Assembly: GCA_038062455.1 (NCBI GenBank) | Contig: JBBTXE010000001.1 | Coordinates: 7,468-56,370, forward strand | Source: Patescibacteria group bacterium | GTDB taxonomy: Bacteria > Patescibacteriota > Microgenomatia > UBA12405 | Direction of reading: 5' to 3' | DNA length: 48,903 nucleotides | Part shown: positions 1 through 48,903 of the stretch, in pieces | How the letters are laid out: every line of letters starts with the position of its first letter | How positions within the stretch are numbered: position 1 is the stretch's first letter | Translations under genes and position numbers: made by a program | Notes under the pieces: generated by a model | What the model was told of the DNA's origin: nothing | Databases searched by the model: none | Seen by the model: the letters and a program-made list of their open reading frames with translations, nothing else

Positions 1-27
1 TATGCCCCCGAAGGGGGAGAGGGGTTT
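1..27 (+). repeat. Partial copy of the DUF559-associated palindromic repeat, in frame in dnaG
   Basis: gcccccgaagggggagaggggttt has the same GGGGAGAGGGGTTT tail as the copies at 17258-17343 and 48151-48205; reads NPSPPSGA in DnaG. Confidence 0.75.
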
Positions 28-1316
28 GTCACCACTTTTATCAATTCGCTTTCCACTGCCGTTGTTTCCGTCCCCAACACTGCCGCCAACTTTTTTAAAT
101 AATCCGACCTAATCACCGCGTTTCTGATTCGGGAAATAAAAGGCAGAACCCTTTTTAGGATCTCCCTTTTTCCTCTTATGGTTTCGACTCCAAAACTGGT
201 TACTGTCGAATTGATGACAAAATCCCAAATCGGTATCGCCTCTTTAATCATTTTTTTAAATTCCTCCGGATTGTCCCGCGCTGCCTCATCGGGGTCTTTA
301 TATTTTTTCAAAAGCTCCACCACTTTTATTTCAAATTCCAACTTTTCGGCCATTTCAATACTACGGATAACCGCGTTGTTACCGGCAAAATCCGAATCCA
401 GTGCCAAAATTAAAATATCAGTGTAGCGACGTAGAAGTTGGAGCTGCTCCTCGGTAAAGGCCGTTCCCTTAATTGCCACAATATTTTCTATCCCTGCCAT
501 AAAAGGAGTTATCATGTCAAATTCCCCCTCCACTACTACTACTGCTTGCTCCCGCCTAATTGCTTCCCGGGCTAAATTCAGGCCGTAAACCGTTTGACTT
601 TTGTGATAAAGTTCCGTTTCCGGCGAATTGATATATTTTGCCTGTTCGGCTTTAGCCCCCGGCAATACTCTTCCTGAAAAGCCGATTATCCGCTCTCGAA
701 AATCAATTAAGGGAAATGTCAACCGGCCATTGAAACGGTCATACAATTTTTTCCCCCCATATTGACTCCAGCCAAAGGTCCCAGTCCAAACCATTTCTTC
801 TTCGCCAAAGCCCTTCTTTTTTAAATAGGCCGTTATCAGTCTTGAATCAGCCGGGGAAAATCCGATTTGAAATTTTTTCACCATCTTCCCATTAATCCCT
901 CTTTTGTCTATATATTCTCTGGCGGCTTTTCCCAAACCGTGACTGGTCAGCATATAGTGATAAAACTTTGCCGTTTCCCTATTAACCGCCAAAATTCTTT
1001 TTTTTCGCCCCTCTCCCTTAGTGTCCTGATATGAATTTACCAGTTTCACTCCGGCCACTTTTGCCATTTCTTCCAATGCTTCCCGAAAATCTATCCGGTT
1101 GAATTCTTGAACAAAAGAAAAAACATCACCGGCTTTACCACAACCAAAACACTTATAAATCTGCAGTTCCGGGCTAACTATAAATGACGGGGTTTTTTCC
1201 TGATGAAAAGGGCAATTGGCTACAAAATGTCGTCCCCGTTTTTTTAACGGCAGCAATCGGTTAATTACCTCGACAATATCCAGCTTTTTTTTAATTTCCT
1301 CAACCTGATTCTCCAC
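3..1316 (-). CDS. dnaG: DNA primase (3' end runs off the window)
   Basis: Manual translation from GTG at 1316: ENQVEEIKKKLDIVEVI...CPFHQEKTPSF...YKCFGCG zinc finger; TOPRIM segment VAIKGTAFTEEQLQLLRRY. Absent from the ORF track because there is no stop in the window. Confidence 0.95.
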   Translation of the reverse strand, partial: MENQVEEIKKKLDIVEVINRLLPLKKRGRHFVANCPFHQEKTPSFIVSPELQIYKCFGCGKAGDVFSFVQEFNRIDFREALEEMAKVAGVKLVNSYQDTKGEGRKKRILAVNRETAKFYHYMLTSHGLGKAAREYIDKRGINGKMVKKFQIGFSPADSRLITAYLKKKGFGEEEMVWTGTFGWSQYGGKKLYDRFNGRLTFPLIDFRERIIGFSGRVLPGAKAEQAKYINSPETELYHKSQTVYGLNLAREAIRREQAVVVVEGEFDMITPFMAGIENIVAIKGTAFTEEQLQLLRRYTDILILALDSDFAGNNAVIRSIEMAEKLEFEIKVVELLKKYKDPDEAARDNPEEFKKMIKEAIPIWDFVINSTVTSFGVETIRGKREILKRVLPFISRIRNAVIRSDYLKKLAAVLGTETTAVESELIKVVTNPSPPSGA

Positions 1317-2978: not shown

Positions 2979-2990
2979 ATTTTGTGTATT

Positions 2991-3054
2991 ACCCTCCTTG
3001 TAAGTCCTTAGATCCTCTTTAGAGGAGGAGGGTGGCCATAGGCCGGGTGGGTTT
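2991..3054 (+). repeat. Palindromic repeat family copy with GTCCTTAGATCCTC core, between convergent genes
   Basis: ccctccttgtaagtccttagatcctctttagaggaggagggtggccataggccgggtgggttt; shares ttgtaagtccttagatcctctttag with the DUF559 direct repeats. Confidence 0.85.
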
Positions 3055-4195
3055 AGACTTGAGCTGATTCAGTATCAGGCTCGCCTGCCGGCGAGGCAGG
3101 GGTGGTTTTTTCTTTCGCTCCCGCCCTCACCAAAATCCGGTCAAAGGTATAAGGTGACAAAATATAAAGAATTTCAAAAGTCGCCACCGACAGCTCAAAG
3201 GCGCAGGGGATGTGGTTGGTAATCAGAAAAGCCCCAATCCCTAAAATCACCGCGTTTCTAAAACTTCGCTCCATCTTTTCCTTAAACACTTTATAGATAA
3301 TGTCATCCGGCACCCCTCTTTTTTTGGCAATTTCAATATCAATTCGGTGTCGGATATAACTGGCATGCATAACAGTCAGAAAGGTCCCGATAGCGGTGAT
3401 GGTATTCATGGTCGTGTTTTGCCTGGTTAAATCAGCTATCAGCCACCATGGAGCAAATTGAGTGGGAATATTTCGGAGGATTATAATCGACAGTACCAAC
3501 AGTGTTCCTCCGAAACCACCAATGGTAAACAACAGTCGGTTATAACCGATTCGAGCCGTCAGTATCTTTTTATTTTTTGCCAAAAATAGCTTGCCCATTC
3601 TCCATAATAGTTTTAGTATCGCCAGAAATACCGTAATCCCGACCCAGATTAAAAAAATCGTTGACCACTTTAGGGCTACGGTATCTGTTATTTTAAAAAA
3701 CGGAAAATTAAAGTTTGTTCCCACCAGTGGATATTCGGGGTAGGGGATGAATTTATAGAGATAGTTAGGATTCAATTTTTGAGTATAAAAATCAATCAAA
3801 AATATTCTTCCAGCCGAGAAAAAAGCAATTGCGTTGACCACAAAACTAAAAACGTAGAAGACTATGGTCGGGTCGCCTCTTTTTACCCTCTCGGTAAACA
3901 AAAAATATTGTCTATCCTCCTTAGTTTTTTCCAGTTCCTCTTCAAAGTCTTTAAACGAATCTGACAATCTCATGCCGATAAACCGCAGTGGTAAAAAAAC
4001 TATATTTTGGACGATTCCGATTAATAGTACCGACACCCAAACCTGCCCGGTGATGCTGTAAAGTCCAAAAAAAGCGCTGGCATACAGCCGAAAACTTCCC
4101 CCCTTAAAAAACCAAATCAATATCCAAATCAAGAAAATAATTAACAAGGAGGTCAGCAACGGCATTACTTTTTTGGTGGTCTTATCGGTCTTCAC
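3053..4195 (-). CDS. Multi-pass membrane protein, weakly YidC/Oxa1-like
   Basis: Several hydrophobic segments; VWVSVLLIGIVQNIVFLPLR followed by a charged helical segment resembles YidC TM1/C1. Confidence 0.55.
   Translation of the reverse strand: MKTDKTTKKVMPLLTSLLIIFLIWILIWFFKGGSFRLYASAFFGLYSITGQVWVSVLLIGIVQNIVFLPLRFIGMRLSDSFKDFEEELEKTKEDRQYFLFTERVKRGDPTIVFYVFSFVVNAIAFFSAGRIFLIDFYTQKLNPNYLYKFIPYPEYPLVGTNFNFPFFKITDTVALKWSTIFLIWVGITVFLAILKLLWRMGKLFLAKNKKILTARIGYNRLLFTIGGFGGTLLVLSIIILRNIPTQFAPWWLIADLTRQNTTMNTITAIGTFLTVMHASYIRHRIDIEIAKKRGVPDDIIYKVFKEKMERSFRNAVILGIGAFLITNHIPCAFELSVATFEILYILSPYTFDRILVRAGAKEKTTPASPAGEPDTESAQV
3082..3100 (-). repeat. CCTGCC..GGCAGG palindromic mini-repeat (PASPAG), in frame
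   Basis: Exact 19-bp reverse complement of 22075-22093. Confidence 0.75.
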
Positions 4196-7182: not shown

Positions 7183-8052
7183 TTACAATTCTCTTAATTT
7201 AATTCCCCTCGATTCTTCTTTATTATCAATCAATTCCAAATATTTTTCAGTAGTCGAAATCCGCTTGTGCCCCACTACCTGTGACACCACATCAATCGGC
7301 ACTCCCGATTTTAGCTGGTAAACAATAAAAGTATTCCGCAAATCATTAACCTTAATCCCCTTAATATCAGCCTTATTAAAGTAACGATTCAAAAGGCTTC
7401 TAATGTTGCGCGACAGTAGCACTCTTCCGGTCTTGGTAATAAACACATTTTTACCCTTGCTTTCCCCTCGAACATCAGTAATGTAGCGCTTCAAGGCCAC
7501 CTTGGCCGAATTATTGAGAGGCACGATTCGCTCCGGGTGGCTCTCATAACTTTCAATCACTATCTCATTTTCCCTCACCTGTTCCAGCTTCAAATTTTCA
7601 ATTTCCTTAATCCGCAACCCTGCCTGAAGCATCAGCTCTACAATCGCTGTAGCCCGGATATCATTCCGGCAGGCATCCCGCAGAGACCGGTATTCAATCG
7701 GTTTTAAAATCTTTGGCGCCTCATTTTCGTATTTAGGATGCTTAATTTCGCTTGATGGGTCAATAGAAACCAGCCCTTCTCCTTTAAGATACGAAAAAAA
7801 GTTTTTAATCGAATTTAACTTCCGGGAGACTGACTTAGCGGTATAGCCGTTGTCTGAAAGGTCCTTTTTAAAATCCTCGACACTTTTGGCCGTCACCCCA
7901 TCCAAAGTGGTAATACTACACTTTGAGCTCAAAAAGCCAATTAATTGGTTGATGTCGCCTTTATAGGCTACAATGGTATTAACCGATTTGCCACGTGTTG
8001 ACAGCGAGTCGCCGAATTTATTTAAGGCCTCATTAAGGGATAAAACAGTCAT
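7183..8052 (-). CDS. XerC/XerD-like tyrosine recombinase
   Basis: SAM-like N-terminal domain (TIVAYKGDI, SVSRKLNSIKNFF), GLRIKE, NDLRNTF, GHKRISTTEKY. Confidence 0.9.
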   Translation of the reverse strand: MTVLSLNEALNKFGDSLSTRGKSVNTIVAYKGDINQLIGFLSSKCSITTLDGVTAKSVEDFKKDLSDNGYTAKSVSRKLNSIKNFFSYLKGEGLVSIDPSSEIKHPKYENEAPKILKPIEYRSLRDACRNDIRATAIVELMLQAGLRIKEIENLKLEQVRENEIVIESYESHPERIVPLNNSAKVALKRYITDVRGESKGKNVFITKTGRVLLSRNIRSLLNRYFNKADIKGIKVNDLRNTFIVYQLKSGVPIDVVSQVVGHKRISTTEKYLELIDNKEESRGIKLREL

Positions 8053-8631: not shown

Positions 8632-8701
8632 TTGCGGGGCCAGGAGTTGAACCTGGCCTGTGAGATTATGAGCCTCACGTGCAGCCGTACACTACCCCGC
8701 A
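8632..8701 (-). tRNA. tRNA-Met(CAT), initiator-like; CCA not encoded
   Basis: TGCGGGG/CCCCGCA acceptor stem, TGAGG-CTCATAA-TCTCA anticodon arm, CCAGG-TTCAACT-CCTGG T arm. Confidence 0.88.
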
Positions 8702-8814
8702 TGTCAAAGAGCCCAAAAGTATAACATTTTTCGGATTTATATTGAAATATTGATATAATTCCCCTAGCTGTGGCAGGCTCGCCTTGCCGCAGCGACACAA
8801 TGCAGAACGAAGGG

Positions 8815-8860
8815 TCGCCTACGCTAAACCTGCCTGCCAGCAGGCAGGGCTTCGGCGGAC
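8815..8860 (+). repeat. Nested palindromic repeats upstream of the tRNA pair
   Basis: gtcgcctacgctaaa[cctgcctgccagcaggcagg]gcttcggcggac: a 20-bp palindrome inside a larger imperfect hairpin. Confidence 0.6.
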
Positions 8861-8862
8861 CA

Positions 8863-8936
8863 GGCAGGGTAGCTCAGTTGGTTAGAGCACGGCATTCATA
8901 ACGCCGTGGTCGCGGGTTCAAGTCCCGCCCCTGCTA
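8863..8936 (+). tRNA. tRNA-Met(CAT), probably elongator
   Basis: GGCAGGG/CCCTGCT acceptor, TAGCTCAGTTGGTTAGAGC D arm, anticodon loop TTCATAA, GGTTCAAGTCC. Confidence 0.9.
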
Positions 8937-8941
8937 CTCAC

Positions 8942-9015
8942 GGGTGCATAGCTCAGTTGGTTAGAGCGCCGATCTTATAAGTCGGAAGTCCTAGGTTCGA
9001 ATCCTAGTGCACCTA
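8942..9015 (+). tRNA. tRNA-Ile(TAT)
   Basis: GGGTGCA/TGCACCT acceptor, CCGAT-CTTATAA-GTCGG anticodon arm, CTAGG-TTCGAAT-CCTAG T arm. Confidence 0.9.
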
Positions 9016-9029
9016 CATTAACAGGTCTT

Positions 9030-9707
9030 TTATTTATACCCCGGACAATCCAACGATTTTTTAAACCCGGCTTTTACTGCCTCCGTCTCGCCGCAAAACC
9101 ATTTATCGCCACCCACTGGGTTAACTACAATCCGGTCGTAGTTATAACAATCGGGTAGACTATAAACCCGGGTACCGCCGGCCTGGCGGTAATTGCCTTT
9201 GATCACACACTTTGAATTTGGCTGACTGCACTTACTTGACCACACCCCTCTTTTGGCCGCTTTGGCCTCCTCGGTTGTTTTTTCCATTTCTTGCAGTACT
9301 AAGTCATCGGCATTTACCTTGGCATCGTAAACCGCCATTCCCTCGGTCAACAATGCCTTGTTAATCAGGAGTTTATCTACATAAACCAGGGCCAAGGTTC
9401 GGTTAAAATTGTCCACTCCCTTATTAACCATTGTCATTTTTTTGTTTAAGACTAGTTCTTCCAGCCGTTTTTTGGCCGCTTCCGACAGACACCCCTCCGG
9501 ATATTCCGGCGCATCAATTCCCCACAGTCTCACCCGCACTCCTGTCGCGGTGTCCAAGGTATCGCCGTCAATTACCCGGGTTACTTCTGCCCCTCTTGTC
9601 AAAGAGGGGTCAGGGGAGATTGTTCTTTTTTGATTAATATACCCATATCCCACCAAACTCGACGTTAGTCCCACTCCCACCGCCACCCTCCCCCAGTGTA
9701 TTTTCAT
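9030..9707 (-). CDS. Thermonuclease (SNase) family protein with Cys-rich C-terminal domain
   Basis: N-terminal TM, VTRVIDGDTL, VRLWGIDAPE, C-terminal CVIKGN...WFCGETEAVKAGF. Confidence 0.9.
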   Translation of the reverse strand: MKIHWGRVAVGVGLTSSLVGYGYINQKRTISPDPSLTRGAEVTRVIDGDTLDTATGVRVRLWGIDAPEYPEGCLSEAAKKRLEELVLNKKMTMVNKGVDNFNRTLALVYVDKLLINKALLTEGMAVYDAKVNADDLVLQEMEKTTEEAKAAKRGVWSSKCSQPNSKCVIKGNYRQAGGTRVYSLPDCYNYDRIVVNPVGGDKWFCGETEAVKAGFKKSLDCPGYK

Positions 9708-10776: not shown

Positions 10777-10853
10777 ATTTCCCCCTTTCTTCAAAGGTCC
10801 ATAGATCCTCGCAGGGGAGAGAAGCCCCGATGAACATCGGGGAGAGGGATTTT
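10777..10853 (+). repeat. Palindromic repeat family copy in the trpS 5' region
   Basis: atttccccctttcttcaaagg-tccatagatcctcgcagg-ggagagaagccccgatgaacatcggggagagggatttt. Confidence 0.85.
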
Positions 10854-10860
10854 AACCCCC

Positions 10861-14750: not shown

Positions 14751-15506
14751 TCTTCTGGCATTTCCGTCAAGAATTTTTTCAGTTTCTTCAAATTCCATCC
14801 CCCAAATTTCTGCTATTTTTTGATATACATATTTAACATTTTCCGGGTAATTTTTTTGTCCCCTAAAAGGCAGGGGAGTTAGCTCGGGCGAGTCGGTTTC
14901 CGCCAACAGTCGGTTATGGGGAATAATTTTGACCACCTCCGCCAATCCCAGCTCATAGGTCACATTTCCGTCTATCCCGAAATACCAGTCTTTACCTAGA
15001 TTAAGCACTTTCTGAACTCTTTTTTTACCCCCTGTATAACAATGAATTACCCCCCGGGTTTCGCTTCCCCTCAATATATCAAACACTTCCTCCACCGCTT
15101 TTCGGGCGTGGACAATTAAGGGCTTGTGGTATCGTTTGGCGAGGGTAATTTGAGCCCGAAAATTTTCAATTTGCAACTCCTTATTATAAGGTTCAATAAA
15201 CTCTAATCCGCATTCTCCCACCGCTACTATTTTTGGATTTTCTTTCAGTAATTTTTCTAAATTTGAAATTTGAAATTTGAAATTTGAAATTATTTCTTGT
15301 GGGTGTATTCCCACCGCTGCCAGCAATTTTGGGTTTATTTTCGCCAGCTTTATATTTGATTTTGATGTTTCTATATTCGATGCTGACAAAACCACATATT
15401 CCAATCCCTCAATTTTAAAATCTTTTAAGTCTCCCTTGTCAAAGGTCCTTAGATCCTCAGAGGGGAGAGATTTAGAGGGATTAACATGCGCATGAGTATC
15501 GATCAT
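14733..15506 (-). CDS. tatD: TatD family hydrolase
   Basis: MIDTHAH, GIHP, VGECGL, IVHAR, HCYTG, ETDSP. Confidence 0.95.
   Translation of the reverse strand: MIDTHAHVNPSKSLPSEDLRTFDKGDLKDFKIEGLEYVVLSASNIETSKSNIKLAKINPKLLAAVGIHPQEIISNFKFQISNLEKLLKENPKIVAVGECGLEFIEPYNKELQIENFRAQITLAKRYHKPLIVHARKAVEEVFDILRGSETRGVIHCYTGGKKRVQKVLNLGKDWYFGIDGNVTYELGLAEVVKIIPHNRLLAETDSPELTPLPFRGQKNYPENVKYVYQKIAEIWGMEFEETEKILDGNARRLFQII
15259..15291 (+). repeat. Heptamer tandem repeat (AAATTTG)x4.7 inside tatD
   Basis: Seen directly; encodes ISNFKFQISNL. Confidence 0.85.
15427..15482 (+). repeat. 56-bp repeat copy in frame in tatD
   Basis: Identical to 16036-16091; encodes NPSKSLPSEDLRTFDKGD. Confidence 0.95.
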
Positions 15507-15755: not shown

Positions 15756-17195
15756 TTAGACTATTCTCGGAAACAACGGCTTCTCCAAAGCCTTTATCTT
15801 TCCGTTTAACACTTTCTCAACTTGTTCACATGTTTCCGGCATAACCGGTTTTAAATAATAGGCTGCTTGTTGTAAATTTTGGACACATTCCGTCAACACC
15901 TCAATTTTTTTCGGATCATTCGCCGGCAACTTCCACGGCGCCACTTCATTTAAACGACTGTTGGATTTATCAATAAACTTTTCAAACACCCAACCAATTG
16001 CTTCATCAAGTTTTAACTCGTCAATTAGTTTTCCAAAGTCTCCCTTGTCAAAGGTCCTTAGATCCTCAGAGGGGAGAGATTTAGAGGGATTTGAAGTTTC
16101 AATTTGTAGTCCACTTGCCAATTTTGTCACCCTGCTCACCAGGTTCCCCAAATTATTCGCTAAATCAGCATTATATTTTTCCTTAAAACGAACAATACCC
16201 ACATCCGAATCATTTTCACCTGGAAACGATCGGGCGATTAAATACCGGCTGCCGTCGACTCCAAACTCATCAATCAATTCCTGCGGGCTAATCACATTCC
16301 CCAGCGATTTGGACATCTTTTGTCCGTCAATCATATAGAAACTATGTGTATAAGTTTTTAGAGGTAACGGGAGACCAGCCGACAACAACATCGCTTGCCA
16401 GATAACCGTATGAAACCATAAAATTTCTTTTCCCAGTAAGTGTAAATTTGCCGGCCAAAAATCCGCCTTTCCTTCAATAAACTGCGTCGCACTATAATAA
16501 TTTAACAGGGCATCAAACCAAACGTAGGCAGTTTGGCTTTTATCCCAAGGCAGAGGAATTCCCCAGGAAACATTTTCTCTGGAAAGCGATATATCGTTAA
16601 CTCCGGCTTTTAGTTTTGCCAAAACTTCAGCCCTCTTCCCTTCAGGGAAAATATAATTAGCTTTGTCGTCTTCGACCAACTCAATTATTTTTGGGACATA
16701 TTTTGATAATTTAAAAAACCAATTCTCTTCACTTTTAAACACCGTTTGCTCCGGCGGATGTAAAGGACAGTATTTATCGACCAGTTCACTTTCAGTCACA
16801 AACTTTTCGCAGCCAACACAATAGTATCCCTCATATTTCCCTTTATAGACATCACCACTATCATAAATTTTTTGCAGCACCTCCGCTACTACTTTTTCAT
16901 GCCGGGGATCAGTAGTTCGAATAAAAAAATCAAAAGAAATATTTAGATTAACCCAAGCCTCTTCAAAACGGGGGGCAACTTTGTCACAATATTCTCTGAC
17001 CCCTAGTTCTTCTTTTTCGGCTGATTCGGCTACTTTTTGACCGTGTTCATCAGTTCCGGTCAAAAAAAATATCTCTTCCTCCAACTGCCGATGCCATCTG
17101 GCCACTATGTCGGCCACTACGGTAGTACAAGTGTGTCCGATATGGGGCACATCATTGATATAATAAATCGGGGTGGTAATAAAAAACTTCTTCAC
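15756..17195 (-). CDS. metG: Methionine--tRNA ligase
   Basis: ITTPIYY, PHIGH, TGTDEHG, YVWFDAL, KMSKSLGN. Confidence 0.97.
   Translation of the reverse strand: MKKFFITTPIYYINDVPHIGHTCTTVVADIVARWHRQLEEEIFFLTGTDEHGQKVAESAEKEELGVREYCDKVAPRFEEAWVNLNISFDFFIRTTDPRHEKVVAEVLQKIYDSGDVYKGKYEGYYCVGCEKFVTESELVDKYCPLHPPEQTVFKSEENWFFKLSKYVPKIIELVEDDKANYIFPEGKRAEVLAKLKAGVNDISLSRENVSWGIPLPWDKSQTAYVWFDALLNYYSATQFIEGKADFWPANLHLLGKEILWFHTVIWQAMLLSAGLPLPLKTYTHSFYMIDGQKMSKSLGNVISPQELIDEFGVDGSRYLIARSFPGENDSDVGIVRFKEKYNADLANNLGNLVSRVTKLASGLQIETSNPSKSLPSEDLRTFDKGDFGKLIDELKLDEAIGWVFEKFIDKSNSRLNEVAPWKLPANDPKKIEVLTECVQNLQQAAYYLKPVMPETCEQVEKVLNGKIKALEKPLFPRIV
16036..16091 (+). repeat. 56-bp repeat copy in frame in metG
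   Basis: Identical to 15427-15482. Confidence 0.95.
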
Positions 17196-17198
17196 GCC

Positions 17199-17570
17199 TT
17201 ATTTTACCTTTTTGGTCGTCTTTTTTTTAGCAGCTACTTTTCTGGTCGCTTTTTGTACTTCTCCCTTGCGTTGCCCGGTCGAAGCCGCAGGCGAAGTCGG
17301 GTCAAGGGGAGATGCCCCGAGCTTGCCGAGGGGAGAGGGGTTTAATCTCTTTGCCATCCTCGACTTTAATCTCGCCACTTTATTGCGATGATATATCCGC
17401 TTTTTCTGGGATTTATCCAAGACCGAAAAAACTTCTTTTAAACCGGCTTCACTCGGTTTAAGCAGATATTTTTTAACTTCCGATTTTACTTTATTCCTAA
17501 AAGAAACATTGACCTTTCTGTTTTTAACCGATTTTCGCCATGATTTTTTGGCTGATCTTGAAATTGGCAT
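17199..17570 (-). CDS. rpsT: 30S ribosomal protein S20 with repeat-derived extension
   Basis: MPISRSAKKSWRKS...LDKSQKKRIYHRNKVARLKSR. Confidence 0.93.
   Translation of the reverse strand: MPISRSAKKSWRKSVKNRKVNVSFRNKVKSEVKKYLLKPSEAGLKEVFSVLDKSQKKRIYHRNKVARLKSRMAKRLNPSPLGKLGASPLDPTSPAASTGQRKGEVQKATRKVAAKKKTTKKVK
17258..17343 (+). repeat. Composite repeat family copy in frame in rpsT
   Basis: ttctccctt...caaggggagatgcccc...ggggagaggggttt; same scaffold as the reverse complement of 48151-48205. Confidence 0.85.
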
Positions 17571-32992: not shown

Positions 32993-33165
32993 TCAACCTA
33001 ACTCTACAATCCTTTCAATCTCTCTTTTCAACTTGGGGATTTCGGTTTTGATTACGTCCCAGACCGTCGCATACATAAAAAGTTCCAAGTATTTCCCCCT
33101 TTCTTCAAGGGGGGAGGTCACGAAGTGACAGGGGGGTTTTGACCAACAACTTCAAACTTCGACAT
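32993..33165 (-). pseudogene. HepT/DUF86 HEPN toxin remnant (internal deletion)
   Basis: MSK start overlapping the MNT end (33165) and C-terminal helix TVWDVIKTEIPKLKREIERI* (32993-33076); the middle is absent. Confidence 0.7.
33091..33140 (+). repeat. Palindromic repeat family copy without the core insert
   Basis: atttccccctttcttcaaggggggaggtcacgaagtgacaggggggtttt; first 18 bp identical to 10777-10794. Confidence 0.85.
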
Positions 33166-39679: not shown

Positions 39680-39721
39680 ATTTCCCTCTTTCCTCAAAGG
39701 GGGATGTACCTCGCAATGACG
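39680..39721 (+). repeat. Truncated repeat scaffold joined to a CTCGCAATGACG half-element
   Basis: atttccctctttcctcaaagggggatgtacctcgcaatgacg. Confidence 0.6.
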
Positions 39722-39744
39722 TGCCGATAAGCTAAAATAGGGGA

Positions 39745-42700
39745 ATGCCGGATTTTAATCGCGAATACCAAAAACTTAATCCCGAACAAAAACAGGCCGT
39801 CGATACCATTGAAGGACCCATCCTGGTTGTCGCTGGCGCCGGCACCGGTAAAACTCAAACAATCGCCCTAAGAATCGGCAATATTCTTGACAAAACTCAA
39901 GTCAATCCCGGCAACATTCTCTGTCTCACCTTTACCGATTCTGCCGCCCTCAACATGCGCGCCCGACTCTTATCCCTTATTGGTCCATCGGCCAATTCCG
40001 TCCGAATCTCTACCTTTCACGCCTTTTGCCAATCAGTCATCCGCAGTCACCCCGAATATTTTTTCCAATTTAATCTTGATTCTGAACCTCTTGATAAAAT
40101 CGAAGCTATCCAGATTATTCGTCATCTGATTGATGCCCTTTCTCTCGACTCACCTCTCAAAACCCCCAATGATCCCTATTATTATCAGAGCGCTCTTATT
40201 TCGGCTATCGAGTCTCTTAAAAAAGAAAATATTGATCCTTCGCTTTATCGGGATTTAGTTGATCAGGAAAAAGTATTTTTGAATTCTGTTCTCCCTTTTT
40301 ATCAACAACTAAAATCTATTACTGCCTACCCCAAAAACCTTGACCTTATTGCCTCCATTATTGACAAAATTATTCACCTAAAAGATTTAAATCAAACTTA
40401 TCAAACTAAAATCTCCTCACTACTAAAAGACCTATCCTTAGCCAAAGATTTAAAATCTACTCTCACTGGCTTTTACGAAAATATTGCCGCCCAATACCCC
40501 CGCCATCTCGCCCTCTCTGAAATTTTTCCGGGTTATCAAAAAGAGTTAACAACCCGCCATCGTTTCGACTTTGACGATATGATTCTCTCGGTCATCGACG
40601 CCTTTAAGAATAATCCCGCGCTGCTATCTTCATATCAGGAAAAATTTCAATATATTTTAGTTGACGAGTTTCAGGACACTTCGGCTTCCCAAAATGAAAT
40701 CATTACTCTTCTCTGTTCAGGTTTCGATTCCCCCAATATCTTTGTCGTTGGTGACGATGATCAGTCGATCTTCCGTTTTCAGGGCGCCTCAGTCGAAAAT
40801 GTTTATTCTTTTTATCAAACTTATAAAACTCCCCCCATTGTTTTGCGCCACAATTACCGCTCTCATCGCCTTATTTTAGATTCCACTACTTCTCTTATTT
40901 CCCGCAACCTTAATCGAATCGCCAAACAAATCAAGGGCATTGATAAGAGCTTAATCGCCACCCGTGATTATGACCCCGACCCGATTAATCTCTATCGGGC
41001 CGAATCTCAGGTTGAGGAAAATTACTGGATAGTTAATAAAATCAAAAAGCTTATTGACTCCGACATTATTCCTCAAAGCATCGCCGTTCTTTTCCGTAAC
41101 AACGCCGATATTCTCGATCTCTTGCCTGTTCTTTCGGCCCTCAAAATCAAATATATCAAAGATTTTGGCACCAACATTTTGACGGAATCCTTAATTCTTC
41201 AGTTGCTCGATTTGTTAAAGCTATTAAGTAACCCCGATGACCAAATTTTAAAAAGTAAAGTTTTAAATTTTTCTTTTCTAAATCTTTCTTCTCTTGGTCT
41301 TTACCTTTATCTTCGTGATCCCCAATCGGTAAAAATATCTTCCAAATTTAAAAAACGTCTAAAAATATTTGAAAAGCGTCTGGCCCGCTTTCAAAAACTC
41401 AAAGCCAACGTTTCTCCCGACAAACTATTTAATCTGGCTATTCGCCGTTTTAAGTTTTTGAGGTATATTTTAAAACATAAAAATATTGAAGCCCTCAAGC
41501 AATTAAATCGCCTCTATTCCGAATTTAAAATTCAGCGATCCATCGCTCCGCTTTCTTTTGACGACATTGTCGCCCGGCTTCAGGTCTATGTTGACAACAA
41601 TCTGTCTTTAGTTTCCCCGCCACTTCTTTCCGACAATCCTCTCTCTATTCGACTGTTAACCGTCCACGAGGCCAAAGGTTTGGAATTCGAACATGTTTTT
41701 CTCATTAAAAATTTGGCTGCCCGTTGGGAATTAGCCCGAGGCCAAAACAAAATTACCCCACCTTTGGGAGTTTTGCGTTCCGAACCCCTCACCGCCAACA
41801 TTGATCTCGAGCTCGAAGAAAATCGTCGCCTCTTTTATGTGGCTCTCACCCGGGCTCAAAATCAGATCTATCTCTCCTACACCAAGATAAATCCGGAGGG
41901 CCGGGAACAGCCTCCCACCCGCTTCCTCTCCGAAATTGATCCTCAATTTATCGAAATTCAGGGTCCCGATTCCAAAATCGAAACCAAAGCTCTCATTTCC
42001 CAATTTTCTCCCAAGGAACCCAAAATCCTCTCCGCCGATTTACACGATTTTTTGAAATATTTTTTTGCCCACCACTATCGCCTTAATATCAGTCATATCA
42101 ATTCCTACAGGAAATGCCCTTTCTGCTTTTTTATCAATACTATCCTCAGGTTACCCAAATCCAAAAGCAACTCCCTCTCTTTTGGTACCAGTGTTCATGG
42201 CGCTCTGGCCTATCTCCACTCCACCCCCAAAACTCCATCTCTTGATGAGTTACTCGTTATTTTTGACAAGAATTTGGCGCGAGAATTACTCACCCCCGCC
42301 GACTTAATCACTTTATCAAAGAGGGGACACGAGGCCCTATCGACATACTACGAACATTATAAAAATGAATTTGGTGGCAAATGTCTAGTTGAACACGATT
42401 TTAAACCCTATTTAGCGAATATCGATTCTATCCCCATTACCGGCAAAATTGACAAGATAGAAATTTTAAGCGGTCATAATGTTAATGTAGTCGATTTCAA
42501 AACCGGAAATCCTGACAACAAATATAAAGAGCTAAAACCGGATGGTGATTATTTCCGTCAGCTGGTTTTCTACAAAATTTTAGCCGACCACAGCCCGGGC
42601 TTTGCTTATTCTGTTGTCTCCGGCACTATCGACTTTGTCGAAACCAAAGTCAATGGCACCTTTGCCCGCCACTCTTTTAAGATTACTCCGGAGGCAATTA

Positions 42701-44763: not shown

Positions 44764-45219
44764 ATGAAAAAAACACCCACCCCTCCTAAAACTAACAATA
44801 CCGTTAAAATCGCCGAGCTGGAAGATAAACTGAAACGGTCACTGGCTGACTACATTAATCTTCAAAACCGGATTGAACGGGAAAAGGAAGCCTTTGTTAG
44901 TCTGATTACCGTCTCAATTATCGCTAAACTTCTCGAGGCCCTTGATGATTTTAAACTAGCTTCAGCCCATCTTCAGGATAAGGGTCTGGAAATAGCCATC
45001 ACTAAATTCAAAACCACCCTTGCCTCCTTTGGATTAAGCTCCGTTGACGCCCTTGGAAAAGACTTTGACCCGGCCACCATGGAATGTCTGGAAACCGCCG
45101 AAGGCGAAAAAAACAAGGTTATTTCTGTCCAAAAAATTGGTTATTTATTAAATGGCCAATGTCTTCGTCCCGCCGGTGTCATCGTTGGTAAAGAAGACAC
45201 AAACAAAAATGAAAATTGA
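44764..45219 (+). CDS. grpE: Nucleotide exchange factor GrpE
   Basis: RSLADYINLQNR, FDPATMEC, GYLLNGQCLRPA. Confidence 0.92.
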   Translation: MKKTPTPPKTNNTVKIAELEDKLKRSLADYINLQNRIEREKEAFVSLITVSIIAKLLEALDDFKLASAHLQDKGLEIAITKFKTTLASFGLSSVDALGKDFDPATMECLETAEGEKNKVISVQKIGYLLNGQCLRPAGVIVGKEDTNKNEN

Positions 45220-45259
45220 AAATTGTAAATTGAAAATTATTTTTTTATAAAAAATTATT

Positions 45260-47170: not shown

Positions 47171-48052
47171 ATGAAACGCGATTTTTACGAAACACTGGGG
47201 ATTTCCAAAGGAGCCTCACCGGCCGATATCAAATCGGCTTACCGAAAACTGGCTTTGCAGTGGCATCCTGATCGCAACAAAACCCCCGATGCCGAAGAAA
47301 AGTTCAAAGAAATCAACGAAGCCTATGAAGTCCTTAGCAACGATCAAAAGAAATCGGCCTACGACCAATTTGGTCACGCCGCCTTTGACCCCTCCGCCGG
47401 CGGTGGTTTTGGTGGTCGTACCTACACTGACCAAAGCGGCCCCTTTACCTACACTTGGAGTGGCGGCCAAAACCCTTTTGGCGGTAATATCGATTTTGAT
47501 TTTGGTGGATTCAGTAACCCTTTTGACATTTTCGAACAATTTTTTTCCGCCGGAGGCAAATCCGCCTTTGGCGAAGGCGGGGGTAGTGGCCGTCGAGCCC
47601 GCCAGATACCGACTTATAAGATCCAATTGACATTTTTAGAAGCCGCCCGCGGCTGTGACAAAGAGGTCAGTCTTGATGGATCCCGCAAAAAAATTAAAAT
47701 CCCCGCCGGAGTTGACGACGGTCAACGGATCAAATTCTCTGATTTTATTTTATATATTGATGTTTTACCCGACAAAATTTTTAAACGCGAAGGCAACGAT
47801 ATCTTTGTTAATCAGGATATTTCCTATGTTCAGGCAGTTTTAGGTGACGAAATCGAAGTACCCTCTCTTGATCGGCCCATCAAAATCCGTATCAAAGCCG
47901 GTACCCAGCCAGGCACTCTCATTCGTCTTCGGGGGCATGGTGTTCGTGACGTCGGCGGCTATGGAATCGGGGATCTCTACATCCGTCTCAATTTGATTGT
48001 TCCATCCCGCCTGTCTTCCAGACAAAAAGACTTGATAAGAAAGCTAGATTAA
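47171..48052 (+). CDS. dnaJ: DnaJ-family co-chaperone without zinc finger (class B)
   Basis: J domain with HPD, G/F region, C-terminal domain; no CxxCxGxG. Confidence 0.9.
47546..47580 (+). repeat. Degenerate TCCGCC..GGCGGA-type tandem palindrome in frame in dnaJ
   Basis: tccgccggaggcaaatccgcctttggcgaaggcgg encodes [11 protein letters not shown]. Confidence 0.45.
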
Positions 48053-48058
48053 ATTTCA

Positions 48059-48117
48059 TAGTATTTTCTCCCTTTGTAAGTCCTTAGATCCTCTTTAGGG
48101 GAGGAGAATGCCGAAGC
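48059..48117 (+). repeat. Left 59-bp direct repeat flanking the DUF559 gene
   Basis: Identical to 48623-48681. Confidence 0.95.
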
Positions 48118-48150
48118 AAAGCTGAGGAAGAGGGTTTTGATGATTGGACT

Positions 48151-48205
48151 AAACCCCTCTCCCCGATATTCATCGGGGTATCTCCCCTTGAAAAGGGGAG
48201 AAATA
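48151..48205 (-). repeat. Inverted copy of the repeat scaffold
   Basis: aaacccctct-ccccgatattcatcgggg-tatctccccttgaaaaggggagaaata. Confidence 0.9.
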
Positions 48206-48222
48206 CCAAGAATAATCATCAT

Positions 48223-48651
48223 GTGAAATATCTTGCCCCGTCTGAAGTCAGAACTCAAAGGTCGAATCTGAAATATTTGGATGAATTAAGAGAATTAGGT
48301 CGAAAAAATCGTCAAAATCCCACCGAGGCTGAATATAAAATATGGAAAATGATTTTACGAAATCATAAAATAAAAGAAAAATTTCTTAGACAAAAACCAA
48401 TCGGTAGATATATTTTAGATTTTTATTGTTCAAAATTATTACTTGCTATTGAAATTGACGGAGATTCGCATGATAAGAAAGCTTATTTGGACAAAAGTCG
48501 AGATTGGTATTTGGATATCCGAGGTATAAAGACAATTAGATATACCAATGGCCAAGTATTAAATAATATCAATGGTGTTTTTTCTGATTTACTTGACAAT
48601 ATTAAACAACGAGAGAAAGAGTTAGTATTTTCTCCCTTTGTAAGTCCTTAG
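48223..48651 (+). CDS. DUF559 (Vsr-like/YcjD) endonuclease
   Basis: RQNPTEAEYKIW, KFLRQKPIGRYILDFYC, LAIEIDGDSH, RDWYLDIRGIKTIRYTN. Confidence 0.92.
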   Translation: MKYLAPSEVRTQRSNLKYLDELRELGRKNRQNPTEAEYKIWKMILRNHKIKEKFLRQKPIGRYILDFYCSKLLLAIEIDGDSHDKKAYLDKSRDWYLDIRGIKTIRYTNGQVLNNINGVFSDLLDNIKQREKELVFSPFVSP

Positions 48652-48681
48652 ATCCTCTTTAGGGGAGGAGAATGCCGAAGC
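48623..48681 (+). repeat. Right 59-bp direct repeat; supplies the DUF559 stop codon
   Basis: Identical to 48059-48117; TAG at 48649-48651 lies inside it. Confidence 0.95.
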
Positions 48682-48744
48682 GAAGTGAGGGAAATGGGTT
48701 TTTCATGCTATAATACCCATAGTTAAATCTGTGATAAATGGAAT

Positions 48745-48767
48745 GGGGACGCGACGTCCCCTTTTTT
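48745..48767 (+). terminator. Terminator-like hairpin in the nusA leader
   Basis: GGGGACG-CGA-CGTCCCC-TTTTTT downstream of TGCTATAAT (about 48706-48714). Confidence 0.7.
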
Positions 48768-48841
48768 ATTTATAAATTAATAATTTAATTTTTATTCAAA
48801 TTGAATTGATAATTGATCATTGATAATTGAAAATTAATACC

Positions 48842-48903
48842 ATGGATATCAAAAGACTGCCAAAAACCGAATTTGCCGCCGCCGTCGCTCAAATCGCCGG
48901 TGA
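48842..48903 (+). CDS. nusA: Probable NusA, 5' fragment only
   Basis: MDIKRLPKTEFAAAVAQIAG resembles the NusA N-terminal helix; only 20 codons are visible. Confidence 0.6.
   Translation, partial: MDIKRLPKTEFAAAVAQIAG

Follow-up and report, generated by a model that had tools for sequence, protein, structure and literature searches.

Inverted copies of a dispersed hairpin repeat bracket DUF559 nuclease genes in Patescibacteria and in other bacterial groups

The window analysed here is the whole of a 48,903-nucleotide stretch of DNA from a Patescibacteria group bacterium, positions 7468–56370 of contig C1 of the source genome G000 (664,830 bp in 8 contigs, 41% GC, estimated to be about 86% complete). 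Near its right-hand end lies the only DUF559 gene of this 665-kb genome, placed between two inverted copies of a short hairpin repeat, other copies of which are dispersed through the genome. Our comparison of related loci demonstrates that this unit of arm, gene and arm, in which the repeat copies form an inverted pair with their tails pointing outward, is a conserved entity. The recurrence of the same arrangement across many bacterial groups suggests that the nuclease family works on the repeats that flank it, in a partnership that would resemble the one between REP (repetitive extragenic palindromic) sequences and RAYTs (REP-associated tyrosine transposases).

The repeat element, as delineated by eye and with nhmmer, is about 55 nt long and consists of a 5′ head, a first hairpin (hairpin 1), a variable second hairpin (hairpin 2) and a G-rich tail. 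A GTATTT- or GTACTT-like sequence forms the head, without a GTAG or CGTC tag. Hairpin 1 is near-palindromic, with a C-rich 5′ side, a G-rich 3′ side and often a TTGTCAA-like centre, and the tail is GGGGTTT-like. Hairpin 2 is unlike in sequence in every copy and retains its pairing throughout.

PF04480 (DUF559) matches were found in 27 of 61 related genomes, 23 of which were counted as full-length; the others are a 46-residue remnant (G004) and weak matches inside larger frames (G011, G032 and G053). The gene is present in 25 of the 36 genomes of family f1 versus 1 of the 24 of other families, in 1–8 copies and in varied contexts. At each relative's locus an inverted element copy ends 10–30 nt 5′ of the start codon, and the gene's 3′ end (last codons or stop) overlaps a second, directly oriented copy. 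Inverted element copies bracket the gene in 25/25 intact loci, and in the MAFFT alignment hairpin 1 and the tail line up in all 50 arms; this alignment left out the pseudogene at L022 and the fragment at L024. As hairpin 1 is palindromic and matches either way, orientation was assigned from the other three parts (head, second hairpin and tail), which can be aligned in most loci. The initial annotation of the window had described the unit as bounded by direct repeats, a description that has to be replaced, since the conserved architecture is the inverted pair and flanking direct repeats occur in only 2 of 26 loci.

The two arms of a locus also resemble each other more than they resemble the arms of other loci. 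When the 150 nt upstream of each gene were reverse-complemented and compared with the downstream flank, the mean score was 45 within loci and 23.6 between them (26 loci). The score lay above the shuffled 95th percentile (20) in 24 of the 26, and the locus's own partner flank ranked 1–5 of 26 in 24 loci. The window locus misses the threshold because a 22-nt insertion breaks the alignment, and L022 misses it because it is a pseudogene with a displaced arm. The pattern of arms that match within a locus and differ between loci extends to paralogues of one genome (G016, G020 and G025).

Searching contigs from one genome per species with a profile of 25 proteins returned 590 relatives. The best 80 of these, from many phyla, were examined, and 75 loci had flank enough to test. 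Inverted flank similarity exceeded the best of 30 shuffles, our threshold for significance, in 43 of the 75, with a score of at least 35 in 28. Together with the 25 intact loci of close relatives, this bears out the proposal of the initial annotation that DUF559 homologues are flanked by such repeats. The loci with inverted flanks include members of the Cyanobacteria, Cloacimonadota, Poribacteria, Desulfobacterota, Nitrospirota and Bacteroidota, and their arms are palindromes of a C-run, a loop and a G-run with a C- or G-rich extension. Some contigs labelled Proteobacteria bear arms of the type seen in the CPR (candidate phyla radiation) and may be mis-binned. In four cyanobacteria with 3, 3, 1 and 1 DUF559 genes, the arm palindrome occurs in about 400, 360, 43 and 120 copies, respectively, versus 0–2 for a reversed-pattern control. 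The dominant loop letters are those of the genome's own DUF559 arms in the two cyanobacteria compared (AAG in Tychonema, AAT in Floridaenema), and in Floridaenema the DUF559 gene is embedded in tandem runs of the palindrome.

Gene and repeat co-occur at the level of whole genomes. Across the 61 genomes searched with a covariance model of the element, all 23 with a full-length DUF559 gene carry matches (5–83 each), and 3–67 (median 24) remain when two arms per gene are subtracted. The 14 f1 genomes without the gene have 0–14 matches (median 1.5). Elsewhere in the order, 24 genomes of other families were searched: no match was obtained in 20 of them and 1–3 weak ones in the other 4. Within f1, Spearman's rho is 0.78, or 0.70 after arm subtraction, for genomes that are related and hence not independent. 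Because of this kinship, and because the model was trained partly on arms, the figures describe co-occurrence rather than test it.

The covariance model was needed because the copies are too diverged for plain BLAST, which gave few matches within the source genome. RNAalifold on a MAFFT alignment gave only 6 pairs, with the hairpins out of register; the structure was then set by hand and 36 clean copies, some of them DUF559 arms, were realigned to it. All 13 pairs show compensatory changes in the model-fitted alignment of 95 matches, and 84.0% of cells pair compared with 69.8% (sd 0.8) in shuffles, none of 500 of which reach the observed value. Sliding the partners against each other left at most 68.3% of cells paired, which is the fairer control because the alignment leans towards the model. 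Judged from these substitutions, the hairpin structure is under selection. GNA triloops were present in 14 of 50 scored second hairpins. The compact left arm of the window locus, the top-scoring match to the model in the window, folds as DNA into two stable hairpins (−16.5 kcal/mol, z −4.6), and orthologues of it are present in G003, G019 and G002. Copies that contain a 22-nt core module fold no better than shuffles (z −0.5, +0.1 and +0.1). They include the two copies that form a direct repeat around the window gene, which are the family's poorest hairpins (z −0.5 and +0.1) because the module interrupts hairpin 1.

The source genome contains 27 model matches at E ≤0.05. They are clustered, 14 of the 19 matches on the 461-kb contig C1 lying in its first 56 kb, near the genome's one DUF559 gene, and C6 and C8, both small, have four each. 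The 22-nt core motif occurs on C1 six times exactly and once with one mismatch, always on the plus strand. All eight further copies that the initial annotation had listed in the window are matched by the model, the one at 39681–39758 weakly (E 0.7). Rfam has no family that covers the element, whether the whole window is searched at gathering score or 47900–48903 at E ≤1; in the latter search chance-level small-RNA matches fell downstream of it only.

The 142-residue product of the window gene matches PF04480 with an E value of 4.7e-26 (91.2 bits, cut-off 20.6) over profile positions 3–108 of 109. DUF559 is the only Pfam family in the protein, which is not an IS200/IS605-like HUH tyrosine transposase. 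We know of no role for DUF559, a very large family with a solved structure (3HRL). The 25 homologues aligned are 41–81% identical to the window protein and share 21 invariant columns (mean column identity 54%); the invariant residues of the alignment include D66, E77, D79, H83, D90, R93 and D94. A sequence profile identified PDB 3HRL as the sole solved relative (E 2.4e-23). The AlphaFold model of the window nuclease (pLDDT, the predicted local distance difference test score, 83.9) was compared with the PDB using Foldseek, and its best fold matches are 3HRL (E 9.7e-7) and 3R3P (E 4.8e-4; TM 0.80 on target), the catalytic domain of the Vsr-like 'EDxHD' homing endonuclease I-Bth0305I. The nuclease domains of PvuRts1I and AbaSI are also near in fold, and Vsr itself (1VSR) comes lower among the matches (rank 24, E 0.31, prob 0.84). 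From its conserved residues and predicted fold, the window nuclease looks intact. Parts of a 2012 survey of PD-(D/E)XK proteins group DUF559 with the Vsr repair nucleases (PMC3424549).

Several element copies in the window are located inside genes. They lie in frame on the opposite strand of the genes for TatD, methionyl-tRNA synthetase (MetRS) and ribosomal protein S20 and of an SNase-like open reading frame (ORF). TatD and MetRS share the element-encoded peptide NPSKSLPSEDLRTFDKGD, and in the S20 product the S20p domain takes up residues 5–77 of 123. Relatives that share about 90% NusA identity differ in whether they have these in-gene copies. TatD illustrates the series: the gene of G003 is free of the element; G006 and G019 have one that lacks the 7-residue core; and in G000 the element includes the core. 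A second in-frame element about 95 residues further along TatD is found in G006 and G019 and is absent from G000 and G003.

The centre of hairpin 1 holds the 22-nt core module in some copies and a 33-nt insert in the S20 copy, and it is the breakpoint of a cassette replacement at L022. By implication of a gene-less doublet in G022, described below, the nuclease gene itself would have been inserted at the same point. Read from these alignments, the hairpin 1 centre is an insertion hot spot.

The elements are strongly polar with respect to GC skew. In the source genome 26 of 27 matches lie on the plus strand of contigs C1, C3, C6 and C8, all with negative skew (−0.19 to −0.36), and the exception is the left arm of the DUF559 gene; contigs C2 and C4, with positive skew and 102 kb in length, have zero matches. 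In G033, 15/15 matches are on the plus strand of C1 (negative skew), and 9/9 on C3 and 12/17 on C2 (both positive) are on the minus strand. Thus, 36 of 41 follow the skew rule, and the five exceptions include three DUF559 arms and one doublet partner. Over both genomes the strand that reads from head to G-tail coincides with the C-rich genome strand in 62 of 68 cases, opposite to the expectation from base composition. On the head-to-G-tail strand, hairpin 1 often contains T·G pairs, which correspond to C·A mismatches on the opposite strand. These T·G pairs and the GNA triloops would fit, and do not prove, that one strand acts as single-stranded DNA (or RNA). As a separate observation, GC skew is very strong on every contig of G000 and G033 (|0.19–0.36|) whatever the coding strand; an unusual disparity in strand composition has reportedly been seen in a Microgenomates genome.

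The history of the window locus can be followed in the genus. The cassette had been placed between dnaJ and a probable nusA; both neighbours were confirmed with Pfam, the downstream one through NusA_N and KH_5. We found nusA in all 23 genomes of the genus and compared the state of the dnaJ-nusA spacer across them. Empty sites, which the initial annotation had proposed to look for, make up 12 of the 23, where the spacer is 99–118 nt long and has no element, only a TATAAT box and a conserved hairpin leader. Four spacers are occupied by the cassette, in the same orientation in G000, G019 and G003 and inverted in G002, where cassette and arms are turned around within unchanged boundaries; the cassette of G003 has a neighbour other than dnaJ upstream. 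G022 has at this site a gene-less doublet (tail-hairpin 2-hairpin 1-hairpin 2-tail), the halves of which are homologous to the two arms of G002, with a single hairpin 1 shared between them. In the closest relative, G006 (L122), the place of DUF559 is taken by a minimal element plus some 800 nt of sequence that contains two small, unrelated ORFs. The remaining genomes have other inserts (3) or a locus without dnaJ (2), and the dnaJ-nusA site seems to be a general landing place. The DUF559 gene of G019 (L123) has an in-frame TGA at a conserved tryptophan, the second hairpin of its left arm is mismatched, and it may be a decaying copy. Cassettes also share sites elsewhere. In three genomes diverged cassettes (L021, L029 and L030), 45–56% identical to the window protein, all lie between one gene pair, which the translated flanks suggest to be secY (its end) and adk (its start). 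Another site is shared by L002, L007, L008 and L022, and one cassette type has replaced another there.

With moderate confidence we favour a REP/RAYT-like (REPtron-like) partnership in which a Vsr-fold nuclease would nick hairpin 1 and leave the remaining steps to repair. Comparison of the loci shows that gene and element are associated; cleavage and mobilisation are what we infer from this. The nuclease would recognise hairpin 1 of its own element variant and nick in or beside its centre, after which repair would copy from another element copy. Nicking and repair of this kind could keep the two arms and neighbouring copies alike and could move the content of the hairpin 1 centre (the 22-nt module, the 33-nt insert or the nuclease gene) from copy to copy. 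New solo copies would be seeded in one orientation relative to replication, by way of single-stranded DNA at the fork. The central idea of the initial annotation, that a non-transposase DUF559 protein is tied to a hairpin repeat as RAYT is to REP, is supported by the flanking and the co-occurrence. More tentatively, and at less than even confidence, we raise the possibility that DUF559 proteins are the missing partners of 'orphan' palindromic repeats in many phyla (CPR bacteria, cyanobacteria, Cloacimonadota, Poribacteria and others). They would then define a new class of mobile or self-maintaining system, in which a small hydrolytic Vsr-fold nuclease takes the place of a transposase, nicks strand-specific DNA hairpins and lets replication-coupled repair spread and homogenise them and nest sequences inside them, even in frame in essential genes.

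A number of observations weigh against the partnership. The evidence is one of association, and a hydrolytic PD-(D/E)xK nuclease cannot rejoin DNA alone. The expectation that repeat number follows gene presence stands in that all 23 gene carriers have repeats and fails in six f1 genomes that have 5–14 well-formed elements and no DUF559 (G007, 100% complete; G015, 98%; G012, G018, G030 and G034); the elements can therefore persist without the gene. Gene, arms and solo copies are inherited together, so that their co-occurrence and co-variation partly reflect shared descent. Within the source genome the solo copies are heterogeneous, every second hairpin differs, and some solo hairpin 1 variants have a cognate DUF559 gene only in other genomes; a simple match of one gene to one uniform repeat family is not what this genome contains. 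The only identical copies there are two local pairs, 564 and 609 nt apart, and we saw no sign of recent long-range copying in it. No target-site duplication was recognised when occupied and empty dnaJ-nusA junctions were compared. Finally, 32 of the 75 loci tested in other phyla, mostly proteobacterial, lack significant inverted flanks.

The main alternative is that DUF559 is a parasite of the repeats, a free-standing, homing-endonuclease-like selfish gene whose product would cut the hairpin 1 palindrome and which repair would copy into element doublets; the elements would then be its landing pads, spread by something else. The nearness in fold to the catalytic domain of I-Bth0305I is in keeping with this, as are the presence or absence of the gene at conserved sites in 1–8 copies per genome and the lopsided distribution in which six genomes have elements without the gene and none of the 23 carriers has the gene without elements. 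The gene-less doublet of G022 likewise resembles an empty target or a gene-deleted allele. We nevertheless consider such a parasite unlikely. The 12 empty sites hold no element, so that arms and gene must have come together, or the element first, at least once; the 43–400 elements for 1–3 genes in cyanobacteria are a RAYT-like ratio and not that of a gene spreading through targets; and hairpin 1 is complete in both arms, which indicates that the gene does not destroy its supposed target. A passive association, in which the elements are host-useful polar DNA or RNA hairpins, such as signals in replication or transcription, and a Vsr-type repair nuclease merely tends to be bracketed by them, for instance because they insulate or terminate a gene that moves horizontally, would account for pairing that is kept by compensatory change at old, diverged copies, for the strong GC-skew polarity and for elements that persist in genomes without the gene. 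The grouping of DUF559 with Vsr repair nucleases in passages of the survey cited above (PMC3424549) points the same way. This explanation leaves aside why nearly every gene copy has matched inverted flanks that differ between paralogues and why the arm variant is the dominant genome repeat in the two cyanobacteria compared. Moreover, elements that are antisense within coding regions do not act as terminators of those genes, and we judge the passive reading distinctly improbable.

The direct repeat of the window locus invites two further explanations, of which one would make it the system's way of moving: a direct-repeat cassette that excises as a 564-bp circle and leaves a solo copy, as the initial annotation had proposed. 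The underlying sequence features of that proposal, namely perfect 59-nt direct repeats, an inverted copy and an intact DUF559 gene that ends in the right repeat, were all confirmed. The repeats at 48059–48117 and 48623–48681 are perfect and in direct orientation (2 matches at ≤3 mismatches versus 0 in 100 shuffles), the similarity continues over 80 nt (91% identity; copies spaced by 564 nt), and the right copy supplies the last 9 codons and the TAG stop of the gene. The graph order A-R-B-R-C of the assembled pieces is also what a circle R-B beside A-R-C would give, and the second locus with a flanking direct repeat, L012 of G033, has one of 83 nt at a spacing of 580. The upstream copy at L012, however, carries about 40 nt of a DUF559 3′ end and is therefore a relic of a second cassette. 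Direct repeats are confined to these 2 of 26 loci, and in G019, the nearest relative with synteny, the cassette sits at this dnaJ junction and has no left copy. No deletion, circle junction or other joint across the cassette appeared in Logan contigs of 4 runs from 3 studies, which drop rare forms and so speak neither for nor against excision. Overall, circular excision is a very doubtful account. In one of these assemblies a contig of a related strain (X10) runs from the dnaJ end through the left copy and left arm to the gene start, lacks the 22 nt in 48076–48102 and occurs beside a contig with the core; since this left copy has no core, the perfect identity probably reflects recent homogenisation and not a boundary made at insertion. 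G003 and G019 have an orthologous right arm that lacks the core. That of G019 shows the ancestral form and has two tail repeats, of which the window left copy keeps the first and the right copy the second. The left direct repeat is thus probably a lineage-specific third copy, made identical to the right arm by gene conversion: the 22-nt module would have entered hairpin 1, and conversion between neighbouring copies would then yield the perfect 59-nt identity. The same explanation fits a second perfect pair, at 15427 and 16036 in TatD and MetRS (56 nt, 609 nt apart), the counterparts of which in G006 differ from each other. That the duplicated 59-mer is an assembly mis-join seems to us barely credible. 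Short-read contigs do break at the repeat. The same pieces recur in runs of all three studies, with a depth at the 59-mer node 1.3–1.8 times that of its neighbours, near double, so that the repeat is not peculiar to the source assembly, even if contigs cannot prove order. One contig (X8) runs from 48059 to 48652, the X10 variant spans the left junction, and synteny with G003 and G019 fits.

The preferred partnership of nuclease and repeat shares features with several known systems and coincides with none of them. As in REP/RAYT, a low-copy nuclease gene lies between two inverted copies of a hairpin repeat that is scattered over the genome in tens to hundreds of copies. The gene occurs together with its repeat family, next to the hairpin stands a 5′ head that is conserved and unpaired, and some repeat copies lie within ORFs. 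It differs in that the enzyme is a Vsr-fold PD-(D/E)xK hydrolase of about 130 residues (PF04480) rather than an IS200/IS605-type HUH tyrosine transposase, the head is GTATTT-like where REPs have GTAG or CGTC, a second hairpin (different in each copy) and a G-rich tail follow the first hairpin, and solo copies are strongly strand-polar. Di Nocera et al. (2013; PMC3733652) describe REPtrons as built on tyrosine transposases and report REP inserts inside ORFs; they note that no enzyme is known for CGTC-tagged REPs and list palindromic families without a tag, in cyanobacteria among others.

Similarity to I-Bth0305I and free-standing homing endonuclease genes lies in a related catalytic fold, as far as the predicted model goes, and in a small, selfish-looking gene that some genomes have and others lack at a conserved intergenic site, and that can face either way there. 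Unlike those genes, it is found outside introns and inteins and has no separate DNA-binding domain, its flanking repeats occur many times in the genome, and its putative target is intact on both sides. Rickettsia palindromic elements are short palindromes that are tolerated in frame within genes. The copies in TatD, MetRS and S20 are likewise in frame in housekeeping genes, here polymorphic between relatives; the sequence family and host phylum are different, and here there is a candidate partner enzyme. With pairs of insertion sequences (IS) and miniature inverted-repeat transposable elements (MITEs) the system has in common inverted terminal arms around one gene and a gene-less derivative (the G022 doublet). 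It departs from them in having no DDE, serine or tyrosine transposase and no recognised target-site duplication, and in that the dispersed copies are mostly single arms and not arm pairs. Vsr endonuclease shares superfamily and fold with DUF559 and differs in its gene context, which is not repeat-flanked; no cytosine methyltransferase turned up alongside DUF559, though no search was aimed at one. Integron attC cassettes carry direct, one-per-cassette sites where the arms here are inverted. The attC sites, Xer/dif modules and terminators were all set aside, given the inverted arms, the lack of matching core sites and the antisense in-gene copies. In the literature, where subscription journals were thinly covered, we found no published link between DUF559 and flanking or dispersed repeats.

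The features of the window locus and the element copies of the window are collected in Table 1.

Table 1. Repeat elements, DUF559 gene and immediate neighbours in the 48,903-nt window (window coordinates)
Feature	Position	Strand	Remarks
Element copy truncated by the window start (3′ part only)	1-29	+	E 0.023; full copy G000:C1:7438-7496
Solo element with core module, intergenic	2989-3057	+	E 0.0011
Short copy within minus-strand SNase-like ORF 9030-9707	9586-9623	+	23.7 bits; absent from the list in the initial annotation
Solo element with core variant, intergenic	10778-10854	+	32.5 bits
Element with core, in frame in the TatD 5′ end (minus-strand gene)	15426-15484	+	Identical over 56 nt to the copy at 16036
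Element with core, in frame within MetRS (minus-strand gene)	16035-16094	+	
Element with 33-nt insert in the hairpin 1 loop; part of the S20 C-terminal extension	17256-17345	+	36.9 bits
Solo compact element between convergent genes	33092-33141	+	47.5 bits; DNA fold z −2.3
Degenerate solo copy, gatB / UvrD-type helicase gene	39681-39758	+	E 0.7, weak; nhmmer finds head and hairpin 1
dnaJ	47171-48052	+	Upstream neighbour; Pfam DnaJ E 5.6e-28, DnaJ_C E 3.8e-32; stop 6 nt 5′ of the left repeat
Left direct repeat	48059-48138	+	Extra third element copy, plus orientation; model 23.7 bits
Stretch with 22-nt core module, nested in the hairpin 1 loop	48076-48102	+	
Left arm	48149-48204	-	Compact inverted copy, tail away from the gene; 55.6 bits, E 2.7e-14
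DUF559 gene	48223-48651	+	142 aa, GTG start; Vsr-fold PD-(D/E)xK nuclease
Right arm = right direct repeat	48623-48702	+	Plus-orientation copy with core module; 17.0 bits
Native dnaJ-nusA spacer	48705-48775	+	TATAAT box and terminator-like hairpin leader, genus-conserved; right edge of the insertion

Some other features of the window were recorded. In the native spacer the TATAAT box is followed by a leader of about 45 nt that ends in a GC hairpin and a T run, an arrangement found upstream of nusA genus-wide. It may function as leader or attenuator, or be a small RNA, and its Rfam matches are at chance level only. AT-rich runs of TTGAAAT-like heptads at 15253–15292, 45200–45253 and 48797–48836, located upstream of dnaK and nusA and, in one case, within the TatD region, may be promoter-upstream elements. 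Three tRNA genes lie at 8632–9015 (Rfam RF00005).

If the favoured reading is true, it would give a role to DUF559, a large family of unknown function, and an enzyme to orphan palindromic repeats that have no known mobiliser, so that both gaps would be closed together. It would mean that a hydrolytic nuclease, and not just a tyrosine transposase, can serve as the basis of a REP-like system. It would also account for a strongly replication-polar repeat and for the in-frame peptide insertions in housekeeping proteins of these tiny CPR genomes.

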